The position numbers were made by a program, and so were the translations under genes. A stretch of 64,000 nt of DNA, taken from the NCBI RefSeq assembly GCF_988243305.1, contig NZ_OZ547136.1. The stretch is one strand, 5' to 3'. The notes beneath the pieces are model-generated. The model worked only from the letters and a program-made list of their open reading frames with translations. It had not been told where the DNA came from and ran no database searches. The stretch's first letter is position 1. The number at the start of each line of letters is the position of its first letter. Shown here piece after piece: positions 10,328 through 12,222 of this stretch.

Positions 10328-10406
10328 AGGGGCATGGCGAAGCCATACAGAAAGCACCAGCATTCAGAACTCCTGTGAAAGCGGCATAGTGCCGCTTTCA
10401 CAGGAG
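10328..10406. repeat. ~80-bp repeat copy A containing perfect 16-bp-stem hairpin (ctcctgtgaaagcggc-atagt-gccgctttcacaggag)
   Basis: Near-identical copy at 12146-12222; abuts stop codon of esterase gene. Confidence 0.7.
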
Positions 10407-11390
10407 TTACCTTCCCGCTCTCCAGGCCACATCCCGCAGCGCCGATCGCGCAGCCTCACTGATACCACCTAACTGAAAAAATCCGTGGATAACGCCAAGG
10501 TAGCGTTGGCAGGTGCATTGCACTCCTTGCCCTGTCATGCGGTGATACAACGCTTCACCTTCATCGCAAAGTGGGTCGTATTCAGCGGTAATGATATGTA
10601 CAGGTGGCAAGCCATTGAAATCATCGCGCCAAAGAGGGCTGGCTTCAGGATGCCTGCGTTCAATGCCTGGCAGATACATCTCAAAGCCGCTCAGTAAAGT
10701 GTCGCGTGTGATGATGTAATCGTGACCATTGCGTATGTAGCTTTCGAAATGCGCAGTCGCATCAAGCATGGGATAAATTAAGATGAGTTGTGCCGGTTGC
10801 CACTCGCCAGCACGCTTTAATCGCAAAGCAGTTACCAGCGCCAGATGTCCGCCCGCACTGTCACCGGCAAGAGTTATCCGTTGTTTATCAACGCCGAGTC
10901 GTTCGGCGTGTTGCCAGACTAATTCTGCACCTCGTTGTGCATCATCATGGGCGGCGGGGAAAGTCTGTTCCGGTGCCAGCCGATACTGGACGGCAATAAC
11001 CCGACATTGCCCGTAATAGGCTAACTGGCGCAGCTGGTTGTCGTGAGTTGCGAACCCGCCGCTAACAAAACAGCCACCGTAGTAATAAATTATCGTCGGG
11101 AGTAATGTCGGGGCATTCAGCGGTGACACTATTCGTAAGATCATCCCTTCAAGTTCGATAGTCTGAATATCTACCCGCGTTTCTGTCTCACCCGCAAGGA
11201 CAGCGCTGGCGATATAGCCCTCCCTGCGCTGCGCAATACTTTGTTGACGCGATGAGGGGCGACCCGCAGCGATAAACTCTTCGACTAACTCTGCAATTCC
11301 TTTTTCCAGTGCCATAGTAGAACTCATTTTGCTGTATGAATGTACAGTTTTATACACCCGTTTTTGCTGGATGGATACAGGGAAATTCAC
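10407..11390 (-). CDS. Alpha/beta-hydrolase fold-3 esterase/lipase (Aes-like)
   Basis: YGGCFVSGG oxyanion region and GDSAGG nucleophile-elbow motif; 327 aa. Confidence 0.8.
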   Translation of the reverse strand: MNFPVSIQQKRVYKTVHSYSKMSSTMALEKGIAELVEEFIAAGRPSSRQQSIAQRREGYIASAVLAGETETRVDIQTIELEGMILRIVSPLNAPTLLPTIIYYYGGCFVSGGFATHDNQLRQLAYYGQCRVIAVQYRLAPEQTFPAAHDDAQRGAELVWQHAERLGVDKQRITLAGDSAGGHLALVTALRLKRAGEWQPAQLILIYPMLDATAHFESYIRNGHDYIITRDTLLSGFEMYLPGIERRHPEASPLWRDDFNGLPPVHIITAEYDPLCDEGEALYHRMTGQGVQCTCQRYLGVIHGFFQLGGISEAARSALRDVAWRAGR

Positions 11391-11412
11391 GGGCGTGAAA
11401 AATCTGGAAAGC

Positions 11413-11435
11413 GCCTCGCAAATGTAAAGACAAAC
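11413..11435 (+). promoter_or_regulatory. Shared upstream motif (TGGAAAGCGCCTCGCAAA) copy 1, upstream of higB-like gene
   Basis: Motif recurs at ~13086-13109 and ~13525-13548 upstream of yiiE and yiiF. Confidence 0.4.
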
Positions 11436-11543
11436 CCGGCAGAGACGTGGTTTTGCTGGAGCACTATCAGTAAGCTAGTGGTTTCAAGGGTGCGTCAATG
11501 ACGTACAAAAAGGATTGTTACTCTAAGCCAATGGCGTATAATT

Positions 11544-11855
11544 ATGCTCTTCATCGAAACGGAAATTTTTACTGAAGATGTTCAAAAACTGCTGACCGAC
11601 GATGAATTCAGTCGTTTTCAGTTTTTCCTGGCCTTGAATCCTGACTATGGTGAGGTAATACCTGAAACTGGTGGGTTAAGAAAGGTTCGATGGGTGTCAG
11701 GAGGAAAGGGGAAACGTGCTGGTGTCAGGGTTATTTACTTTCATCAGGTTAAACATTATGAGATCAGATTACTGCTTATTTATCGTAAGGGTATTAAAGA
11801 TGATCTGTCTCCCCAGGAAAAAGCAATGCTCCGGTTGTTAAATACGAGGTGGTAA
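11544..11855 (+). CDS. RelE/HigB-family type II toxin
   Basis: 103-aa ORF; toxin-first gene order; stop of toxin abuts start of downstream HTH gene. Confidence 0.65.
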   Translation: MLFIETEIFTEDVQKLLTDDEFSRFQFFLALNPDYGEVIPETGGLRKVRWVSGGKGKRAGVRVIYFHQVKHYEIRLLLIYRKGIKDDLSPQEKAMLRLLNTRW

Positions 11856-12146
11856 ATGGATAAGGCACTTTTTGAGCGGTTGACTCACAGCATGGCCCAG
11901 ATGAATGAAATTATTGAAGGAACGCGACACCCTTCACGGACTTTTGAAGTTGATGCTATGAAAATCAAAGAAATACGCCGCGCTTCAGGGTTGTCACAAT
12001 CTAAATTTGCCGAACTTATTTCCGTAAGCGTAGACACGTTGCGTAACTGGGAGCAGGGGCGACGTTCACCGACTGGGCCTGCAAAGGCTTTGCTGCGAGC
12101 GATTGCCAATGATCCGCAACATGTGCTGCAGGCACTTAACCGTTAG
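11856..12146 (+). CDS. HigA-like XRE-family HTH antitoxin
   Basis: 96-aa ORF with HTH (SQSKFAELISVSVDTLRNWEQGRR); immediately follows toxin. Confidence 0.65.
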   Translation: MDKALFERLTHSMAQMNEIIEGTRHPSRTFEVDAMKIKEIRRASGLSQSKFAELISVSVDTLRNWEQGRRSPTGPAKALLRAIANDPQHVLQALNR

Positions 12147-12222
12147 AGGCATGGTTATGCCATACAGAAAGCACCAGCATTCAGAACTCCTATGAAAGCG
12201 GCATAGTGCCGCCTGCTCAGGA
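12146..12222. repeat. ~80-bp repeat copy B (degenerate hairpin)
   Basis: Direct repeat of 10328-10406 (gccatacagaaagcaccagcattcagaactcct.tgaaagcggcatagtgccgc). Confidence 0.7.

Follow-up and report, generated by a model that had tools for sequence, protein, structure and literature searches.

HigBA-2 toxin-antitoxin (TA) modules form gene cassettes in the superintegron of Vibrio cholerae. The attC sites of integrons follow the R''/R' consensus RYYYAAC...GTTRRRY, carry L boxes and extrahelical bases, and measure 57-141 bp in total. In the repeats of these higBA-2 cassettes, an imperfect palindrome lies beside the HigB-2/HigA-2 pair and the boundary falls at ...GTT. The same traits are met in the DNA considered here, a stretch of 64,000 nucleotides (the window) from contig NZ_OZ547136.1 of the NCBI RefSeq assembly GCF_988243305.1, in which two direct repeats with hairpins, called copy A and copy B, enclose an esterase gene and a HigB/HigA-like pair. 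Unlike integron attC sites, these repeats come without integrase and without attC consensus, have a palindrome of 41 nt, and occur at one locus as diverged copies. The locus sits between fabY (yiiD) and yiiE, beside fdhE-fdoIHG, and the window is 100% identical to Escherichia coli strain C4 in the fabY-yiiE region. A sequence-only reading of this DNA had proposed that the repeats mark the boundary of a cassette or act as a shared terminator or RNA-stability element. Comparison of alleles indicates that they are probably diverged copies of one old chromosomal intergenic element, placed in tandem by the joining of two haplotypes, and not the ends of a mobile unit.

Two described processes resemble what is seen at this locus. 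In homology-facilitated illegitimate recombination (HFIR), shown at low frequency in E. coli conjugation and described in naturally competent bacteria, a join at a short microhomology is accompanied by extensive homology on the other side (PMC3240628). Two haplotypes appear to be joined in this manner here, at GGAGTT, with the difference that only the product is seen and that an intrachromosomal or sister-chromosome event is possible. Quasipalindrome template switching, which is documented in E. coli (PMC7202029) and known from the Ripley model, the thyA hotspot and the lacZ reporters of the Lovett laboratory, turns an imperfect repeat into a perfect one through a clustered change, as in copy A. 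In contrast to the thyA and lacZ systems, the event is deduced here from natural variation (~120 perfect against ~209 imperfect hairpins at one junction) and, unlike in reporter genes, it concerns a non-coding junction and takes its direction from outgroups.

Besides these processes, relic gene ends left by module displacement are proposed, in PMC5361080, for T6SS (type VI secretion system) effector/immunity arrays of V. cholerae. The counterpart here would be the tail of the antitoxin gene nadS together with the element, in a different gene system; this relic would have offered homology for later exchange and, with the native copy, come to enclose the ancestral module as one of two direct repeats. 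A GC-rich stem-loop between convergent genes, as found here, also occurs in repetitive extragenic palindromes (REP), bacterial interspersed mosaic elements (BIME) and other dispersed E. coli palindromes, whereas the present element is not dispersed, has at most two copies at fabY-yiiE and falls into no Rfam family.

The element consists of the last ~26 nt of nadS, a 33-nt invariant core and a quasi-palindromic hairpin holding the Shine-Dalgarno (SD) sequence of a 70-aa open reading frame (ORF). According to the proposed history, haplotype Y (allele 3 in E. coli), in which fabY converges on the esterase, followed by higB-2 and nadS, would be ancestral in Enterobacteriaceae. In haplotype X (allele 2, e.g. 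O157:H7), old as well, a SopB-like gene would have displaced the esterase, the toxin and most of nadS; the tail of nadS would have remained as a relic, along with the element. Allele 1, present in the window, would be a chimera in which the left part of X, up to the exact hairpin end, was joined to the 3' end of the Y esterase at GGAGTT, the second crossover being presumably homologous, as in HFIR. The join would have displaced the native 59-bp terminator region of the esterase, brought hairpin A directly after the esterase stop codon and left the element's X copy and Y copy on either side of the esterase and the TA pair, at a distance of 1817 bp. Later, in the sublineage including the window, hairpin A would have been made perfect by a template switch (TGCTC to TTTCAC). 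The copies, and especially their 33-nt core, may now be substrates for RecA-type exchange, yielding hybrids and allowing the 1.8-kb segment to be deleted or reinstalled. In this history, the structures of the alleles, their junction sequences, the pattern of divergence, the ancestral synteny and the derived nature of the perfect hairpin are observed, whereas the order of events, the mechanism of recombination and a present role of hairpin A as a 3' stem-loop of the esterase are deduced.

Repeat copies and alleles of the locus

A repeat search within 9000-13500 found one convincing direct-repeat family. Without gaps, copy A (10311-10408) and copy B (12128-12225) are 98 nt long and 88% identical, with a spacing of 1817 nt; when one indel is allowed in BLAST, the pair grows to 10305-10408 and 12121-12225 (~105 nt). 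An exact 32-nt core (10342-10373 = 12159-12190), which becomes a run of 33 nt when read by eye, occurs twice in the 64-kb window against 0.00 occurrences expected from shuffles. The near-identical repeats that the sequence-only reading had placed 3' of the esterase and at the antitoxin end are real. It had also set copy B immediately 3' of the antitoxin gene; the copy indeed lies near the end of that gene, but it takes in the last ~26 nt of it, the antitoxin stop codon being at 12144-12146. The repeat features are as follows.

10305-10408, plus strand: repeat copy A, the haplotype-X copy (repeat search, BLAST, allele comparison)
10305-10329, plus strand: probable remnant of the 3' end of the antitoxin gene (nadS/higA-2), making up copy A on its left (aligns to 12121-12146)
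10342-10374, plus strand: 33-nt core, the same in A, B and nearly all E. coli variants (comparison of variants)
10368-10408, no strand: perfect palindrome, a derived state, adjoining and overlapping the esterase stop codon (imperfect in allele 1b)
10403-10408, no strand: GGAGTT microhomology where the haplotype-X piece meets the 3' end of the esterase (alleles 1, 2 and 3 compared)
12121-12225, plus strand: repeat copy B in its probable native position, with nadS end, core and imperfect hairpin (homologous element after nadS in Pseudocitrobacter)
12185-12225, plus strand: imperfect hairpin of ancestral type, with the SD AGGAG of the next ORF in its right arm, then TTTT (sequence, folding)

The hairpin of copy A (10368-10408) has a perfect stem of 19 bp and a loop of 3 nt, AACTCCTGTGAAAGCGGCA/TAG/TGCCGCTTTCACAGGAGTT, with a free energy of -33.9 kcal/mol; it had been correctly described as perfect, but with a stem of 16 bp. 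Its right end overlaps the esterase stop codon (complement of 10407-10409). Copy A, in an 86-nt context, folds at -48 kcal/mol (z = -7.7); copy B folds at -30.7 kcal/mol (z = -2.7). The hairpin of copy B has the same arms as that of A, with an outer 7-bp and an inner 6-bp stem and an internal loop between them, and reaches -18.8 kcal/mol on the plus strand and -23.1 kcal/mol on the minus strand. Its right arm holds, in paired form, an AGGAG located 7 nt upstream of ATG 12231, the start of the 70-aa ORF, and TTTT follows the hairpin. Copy B does supply the SD, as the sequence-only reading stated, but its supposed degeneracy runs the other way, since B holds the ancestral hairpin form and the perfection of A is derived.

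Of 5426 complete E. coli genomes, 3369 have the repeat, at a median of one place, in at most two true copies and solely at fabY-yiiE. An apparent third place in some genomes corresponds to the palindrome matching its own opposite strand beside two copies. These genomes hold neither further copies beyond fabY-yiiE nor copies flanking other cargo, and with one locus and at most two copies per genome the repeat is not the ubiquitous REP or terminator family that it might have turned out to be. The locus occurs in the following forms.

Allele 1 (window): fabY, 604/617-aa ORF, copy A, esterase (minus strand), higB-2, nadS, copy B, 70-aa ORF, 92-aa ORF, yiiE
Allele 2 (O157:H7, PCN033): fabY, same large ORF, one copy, frameshifted stub of the 70-aa ORF; 12282-12674 missing
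Allele 3 (8178, 536, NU14, ATCC 25922, many others): fabY, unique 59-bp hairpin segment, esterase, TA pair, copy B
K-12 allele: window 8489-12747 deleted

Allele 3 is devoid of both the large ORF and copy A. Counts of the allele classes, approximate and taken from aggregate BLAST counts over the 5426 genomes, give 329 genomes with the segment and two copies, copy A being joined to the esterase (allele 1), ~733 (1062 - 329) with no segment and one copy after the same large ORF (allele 2), ~2300 with the segment and copy B only (allele 3 type) and ~2060 without any copy. Empty-site alleles, for which a search had been proposed, thus exist (~733, e.g. O157:H7), but they are not simple excision products of the window allele. 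When A x B recombination of the window allele is carried out in silico, the product is 97% identical to allele 2 on the left flank and only 61% on the right flank, and the O157 allele was rejected as a simple excision of the window segment. The idea of a cassette boundary keeps its value in a loose, structural sense, as alleles with and without the 1.8-kb segment and hybrid copies are found, but not in the sense of a site-specific recombination site or a transposed unit.

K-12 MG1655 (locus L004, 4850-4915) retains the first ~65 nt of the phosphatase-like large ORF, equivalent to window 8424-8488, and its deletion then runs into the 92-aa ORF. The 850-bp fabY-yiiE 'intergenic' region of K-12 is thus a deletion scar.

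Outside E. coli, an exact 20-mer of the core searched in 100,044 species representatives gave one chance match in Polaromonas. An exact 20-mer is too strict a probe, as diverged copies were found in Pseudocitrobacter and in contigs L014 and L019, which indicates that the element is not specific to E. coli. A literature search on yiiD/yiiE variability returned nothing relevant.

The junction with the esterase and the perfect hairpin

The joint is delimited by the junction sequences of the alleles. In allele 3, the junction reads ...CTGGTCCGGAGTT|ACCTTCC, with the extended right side ACCTTCCCGC, and in allele 2 it reads ...CTGCTCAGGAGTT|TTGTTATG, with the extended right side TTGTTATGACC. Allele 1b, in which hairpin A is imperfect, shows ...CTGCTCAGGAGTT|ACCTTCC, with the extended right side ACCTTCCCGC, and is therefore like allele 2 on the left and like allele 3 on the right. 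The joint lies inside the GGAGTT common to both parents (6/6 perfect, 13/18 when extended), and on the other side of it long homology is offered either by fabY or by the repeat together with what lies downstream of it. The GGAGTT joint appears to be the signature of an illegitimate join at microhomology. A novel joint at a microhomology of 3-10 nt, with a homologous anchor, is the hallmark of HFIR, and the structure of allele 1 points to such an event.

The divergence pattern follows the same division. Compared with allele 2, the window is 94-100% identical up to 10408 and 78-88% identical over the shared 12121-12964, whereas identity to allele 3 is 98-100% over 10403-12900. This suggests that the 12% difference between A and B, which matches the divergence of the two downstream haplotypes, is haplotype divergence. 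A recent tandem duplication was rejected, as A and B differ by 12% and the intervening sequence by 0-3% among alleles. The esterase-TA part of allele 1 shows 0-0.2% differences among 1a (the sublineage with the perfect hairpin) and 1b, ~1% to strain SCU-316 and 1.5-2.9% from allele 3, and allele 2 genomes differ from each other by 3.4-4% in the large ORF. From these values, allele 1 looks young.

The start of copy A is a diverged piece of the 3' end of nadS. Within the window, the homology of A and B could not be followed leftward into nadS by local alignment, which did no better than shuffles, and the nadS-relic extension in copy A is credible solely via contig L014 as an intermediate.

In allele 3 (L003, 5942-6000), fabY and the esterase share a perfect 13-bp hairpin, GAAAAGGTTTTCA/GAT/TGAAAACCTTTTC (minus-strand fold), which is absent from the window. 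Two hairpins take its place there, hairpin A next to the esterase and a separate one, at 8015-8038, next to fabY.

Exchange within the repeat is indicated by hybrid copies. SCU-316 has two copies with O157-type hairpins, followed by an X-type downstream region, and its copy B combines a Y-type left part with an X-type right part; mosaics are also seen in ECCNB12-2 and SCPM. As such hybrids (SCU-316, ECCNB12-2) show, homologous exchange happens inside the repeat, and the empty alleles combined with the hybrid copies document the element as an island of homology acting as a recombination anchor at this locus. Several independent structural breakpoints are located at the edges of the element: haplotype X breaks at the nadS tail, L019 at the core's left edge, L014 in the left hairpin arm and allele 1 where the hairpin ends on the right, and a further one is the start of the diverged downstream haplotypes. 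Other structural variants of the locus break at other positions.

The same junction between copy A and the esterase exists with two hairpin right arms. The imperfect O157-type arm, TGCCGC-TGCTC-AGGAGTT, is found in ECSC054 and SCU-316, and the perfect one, TGCCGC-TTTCAC-AGGAGTT, in the window, C4, 7/2 and ETEC4075. Among the 329 allele-1 genomes, ~120 including the window carry the perfect hairpin and ~209 the imperfect one. The change from TGCTC to TTTCAC amounts to one insertion and two substitutions within 6 nt, with the rest of the hairpin unchanged. It makes the arm the exact complement of the left arm (19/19) and takes the stability of hairpin A from -23.6 to -33.9 kcal/mol. According to a rough count, ~1 in 10^5 of the possible three-edit changes of the arm would give the exact complement.

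Outside sublineage 1a, the hairpin is imperfect everywhere, i.e. in copy B, O157, PCN033, SCPM, L016, L019, allele 1b and Pseudocitrobacter, and the seven other natural hairpin variants, that of Pseudocitrobacter included, are all imperfect. No genome among those searched has a perfect hairpin before the 70-aa ORF flank, the best match being 95.5%. An ancestral perfect hairpin was rejected on these grounds, and the perfection of hairpin A is a recent derived state. An imperfect ancestor followed by a clustered, templated change is what a quasipalindrome template switch is expected to produce, and the change of one arm into an exact complement of the other would be its signature. As the states 'before' (~209 genomes) and 'after' (~120) are both still present in the E. 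coli population, the event is directly testable.

Ancestry of the locus and competing explanations

Orthologues of the esterase are found at 75-83% identity across Enterobacteriaceae. In Salmonella enterica subsp. salamae, fabY is convergent with an esterase - higB-2 - nadS block, itself convergent with fdhE. Pseudocitrobacter has a salamae-like order plus an extra HigB/HTH (helix-turn-helix) gene pair between the esterase and fabY, and behind its nadS lies a homologue of the element (84% over 61 nt) in which the core, a hairpin that is imperfect and 11 codons of the 70-aa ORF, as a stub, can be recognised. In Citrobacter koseri and a related contig, a PIN/RHH (ribbon-helix-helix) pair stands in the place of HigBA-2. 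In Salmonella, Citrobacter and a further related taxon (L025), the esterase gene directly faces fabY in convergent orientation, with neither phosphatase gene nor copy A. The synteny of salamae and Pseudocitrobacter suggests that the esterase and the TA pair are ancestral residents of the locus and not imported cargo, that copy B is native, that the convergence of fabY and the esterase is the ancestral junction and that allele 1 is derived. In metagenome contigs L014 and L015, an orthologue of the large ORF (73% identical) follows fabY, and after it come a nadS remnant, longer than in copy A, and the core; the arrangement of large ORF, nadS relic and element is thus old.

The slot between the esterase and fdhE, compared by genus (L024-L027 against window 10407-13900), is occupied by HigB-2/NadS, by PIN/RHH, by an extra HigB/HTH pair or, in E. 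coli, by the RHH genes yiiE/yiiF. It seems to have served TA modules as a landing site for a long time.

Several points weigh against the joining of two haplotypes as described above. The order of events is drawn from ~15 sampled loci and aggregate BLAST counts, not from a genome phylogeny. The 13/18 likeness of the allele 3 esterase flank to the hairpin right arm could be a remnant of an older repeat-esterase junction, and allele 2 may possibly have come from a two-copy allele of the SCU-316 type by A x B deletion. Moreover, downstream haplotypes are not strictly tied to left modules, as the nadS of SCPM is followed by an X-like downstream region. Compensatory changes are seen at 0 of 20 hairpin pairs, so that selection on structure gets no support. 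Finally, HFIR is very inefficient in laboratory E. coli, at ~3e-10 per recipient (PMC3240628).

Two of these points, the 13/18 likeness and the alleles of the SCU-316 type, can be accommodated by a history, unlikely on the whole, in which the tandem state is older. Through an ancient duplication, the nadS-tail element would have come to flank the esterase at either end, and the single-copy alleles would be deletion derivatives, allele 2 arising by A x B deletion of the esterase and TA genes and allele 3 by replacement of the phosphatase gene and copy A by the 59-bp segment. RecA can act adequately on direct repeats of ~100 bp that share an identical core of 33 nt. In SCU-316, deletion by A x B' recombination does give the O157 junction, identical over ~140 nt, with flanks at 98% and 90% and the downstream region at 95%, and the partial match of the allele 3 flank fits as well. 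However, the same deletion in the window allele misses the right flank of allele 2, and the directly convergent fabY and esterase genes of Salmonella, Citrobacter and L025 come with neither copy A nor phosphatase gene, only an extra HigB/HTH pair lying between them in Pseudocitrobacter. Allele 1 is also rare (329/5426) and nearly invariant in its esterase-TA part, whereas alleles 2 and 3 are far more diverse. Outgroup synteny and the low diversity of allele 1 therefore make this history less favoured. Retention of both copies as a functional RNA element is more doubtful still. Copy A would be a terminator or 3'-stabilising stem-loop of the esterase on the minus strand, copy B a terminator and SD-sequestering leader, and the perfect form would have been selected. 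In line with this idea, hairpin A begins at the esterase stop codon in place of the native 13-bp hairpin of allele 3, both copies fold very stably, the AGGAG of copy B is paired with TTTT after it, and the element is 84% conserved between E. coli and Pseudocitrobacter against ~75% for the neighbouring TA genes. Yet both copies have a stem but copy A is without T-run on either strand and copy B is followed by TTTT only, and a terminator scan picked up neither of them. Rfam gave no match to the repeats, yielding at the gathering threshold the SECIS of fdoG only and, in an E-value scan of 10150-12550, a chance mir-288 match only. The covariation result given above and the ~209 of 329 allele-1 genomes that keep the imperfect form speak in the same direction. 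Such a role would account for the retention of the copies and not for their origin, and is compatible with the joining of two haplotypes. In its native place, the hairpin could dampen read-through from higBA-2 and control whether the 70-aa ORF is translated, and hairpin A may act as a 3' stem-loop for the esterase mRNA.

It is highly improbable that the repeats are recombination sites or terminal repeats (attC-like, Xer/dif-like or transposon-like) of a mobile cassette, the esterase and TA genes moving as a unit, perhaps by means of the adjacent 'transposase'. This gene is so called by the PGAP annotation, alleles with and without the 1.8-kb segment exist, HigBA-2 modules are cassettes in V. 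cholerae and the A/B homology stops exactly at ...GGAGTT. Nevertheless, the 'transposase' has a SopB phosphatase fold with an invariant CX5R motif and no transposase, integrase, Pfam, NCBIfam or PHROG match. The repeat is restricted to one locus, is never seen with other cargo elsewhere and never on true plasmids: near-identical plasmid matches are only chromosomes filed as plasmids, and on true Salmonella and Enterobacter plasmids the TA homologues are 72-74% identical and end before the repeat. In addition, the copies are 12% diverged, copy A carries a gene fragment, the esterase-TA block is syntenic across genera and other structural variants break elsewhere. No recombinase or transposase was found near the repeats among the annotated neighbours. 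Specific forms of mobility were also rejected. An attC site is at odds with TCAGAAC and GTTACCT/GTTTTAC, which are off the R''/R' consensus, with AAC/GTT located at the outer and not the inner stem ends, and with a whole palindrome of 41 nt. An integron cassette array does not fit the annotated neighbours, which are fabY, the phosphatase-like ORF, the esterase, the TA pair, small ORFs, yiiE/yiiF and fdh genes, with no integrase. A transposon or insertion sequence unit does not fit direct repeats of ~100 nt that are 88% identical, one of them with a gene fragment, in the vicinity of no transposase gene. A dispersed family (REP, BIME or miniature inverted-repeat transposable elements) is contradicted by the distribution of the repeat in the 5426 genomes and by its 2 matches in the window.

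The joining of two haplotypes leaves room for a further reading of the element, to which a low probability is given. It could be a functional cis-element and a recurrent exchange point for modules at the fabY-fdhE locus of Enterobacteriaceae, a reading based on at least five independent structural breakpoints at its edges and on the hybrid copies. If so, the hairpin would promote breakage or template switching, or control the small downstream ORFs, and the locus would serve TA pairs and effector-like genes as a 'landing pad' with no need of a dedicated recombinase. Overall, the feature is real and beyond chance, and is a new instance of known processes, i.e. ordinary genome plasticity in a hypervariable chromosomal locus. 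It shows that direct repeats around TA 'cargo' need not mean mobility, being here, in all likelihood, a by-product of haplotype joining. It also offers a natural example of two processes mostly known from reporters, the illegitimate join at microhomology and the quasipalindrome template switch.

The phosphatase-like ORF and the other genes

The genes of the locus, for which a coordinate in the PGAP annotation of the 100% identical strain C4 plus 799 gives the window coordinate, are the following.

7067-8008, plus strand: fabY (yiiD), conserved left flank (PGAP annotation of C4; present in all alleles)
8015-8038, plus strand: terminator-like fabY hairpin of the X/K-12 haplotype (terminator scan; comparison with strain 8178)
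8424-10238, plus strand: predicted SopB/IpgD/SidF-fold CX5R phosphatase homologue, 604-aa ORF, defining gene of haplotype X
10407-11315, minus strand: esterase of alpha/beta hydrolase fold-3, hormone-sensitive-lipase-like (NCBIfam, PGAP, same-locus orthologues in other genera)
11544-11855, plus strand: HigB-2-like toxin (PDB HigB-2, E = 1.5e-19; weak Pfam RelE PF06296; phrog_5869)
11856-12146, plus strand: HigA-2/NadS-like antitoxin (NCBIfam NadS, 60.4 bits for a cut-off of 60; PDB HigA-2, E = 8e-9)
12231-12443, plus strand: 70-aa ORF, cysteine-rich, phrog_4499-like, E = 8e-14 (ORF list, PHROG match)
12505-12783, plus strand: 92-aa ORF with no family match, part of the 'long' downstream haplotype (ORF list, family scans)
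13202-13420, plus strand: yiiE (CopG/RHH), conserved right flank (PGAP annotation of C4)

The large ORF reaches 617 aa if GTG 8385 is used as its start. The PGAP label 'transposase' is attached to its C-terminal half. Exhaustive HMMER searches place it in a family of proteins of ~600-850 aa, across which the motif GCKSAKDRT is invariant: in 21 family sequences, C499, D504 and R505 never vary, and conservation reaches at least 90% for G498, K500, S501 and A502. CKSAKDRT is the CX5R active-site motif of INPP4A/B, the inositol polyphosphate 4-phosphatases (PMC3248162). The ORF is similar in fold to solved members of the SopB/IpgD/SidF family. No match was obtained in Pfam (IpgD family included), NCBIfam, PHROG, PDB sequences or PDB profiles, and a Pfam match is absent for all 21 aligned family members as well. 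The large ORF is thus predicted to be a CX5R phosphatase homologue of the SopB/IpgD/SidF type, a likeness visible by fold and motif alone. A transposase identity was rejected in view of this fold, the invariant motif and the lack of any transposase or integrase match, and the annotation is corrected on this basis. This exposes in E. coli a family with a SopB fold that has no match in Pfam, NCBIfam or PHROGs, and this gene is a more intriguing by-product of the analysis than the repeat itself.

The calls of an esterase and a HigB/HigA-like pair made by the sequence-only reading stand. The esterase belongs to the Abhydrolase_3/hormone-sensitive-lipase-like group (NCBIfam). The toxin matches the solved HigB-2 of V. 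cholerae (9tv9/5ja8) with E = 1.5e-19 to 9e-19 and the antitoxin the solved HigA-2 (9tv9/5jaa) with E = 8e-9 to 4e-8, and the toxin ORF comes first, with the antitoxin ORF directly after it. By homology and toxin-first order, the pair is assigned as a putative HigB-2/HigA-2 type II TA system. PADLOC defence models returned generic HTH matches and nothing more.

Next to fabY, allele 3 carries a different 59-bp segment in place of the 8015-8038 fabY hairpin, as seen by comparison with strain 8178. Downstream of the TA pair, the 70-aa and 92-aa ORFs stay with the repeat element beside three different left neighbours: nadS, the phosphatase relic or, in L019, three other genes.

The region upstream of yiiE (13063-13146) is ~80% identical to that upstream of yiiF (13502-13584), as seen from secondary BLAST matches, which suggests a local duplication of these two CopG/RHH genes together with their leaders. 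Further along the window, a SECIS_3 element (84 bits; 18946-19004, minus strand) lies in the gene of the formate dehydrogenase alpha subunit, where it is expected and ordinary.

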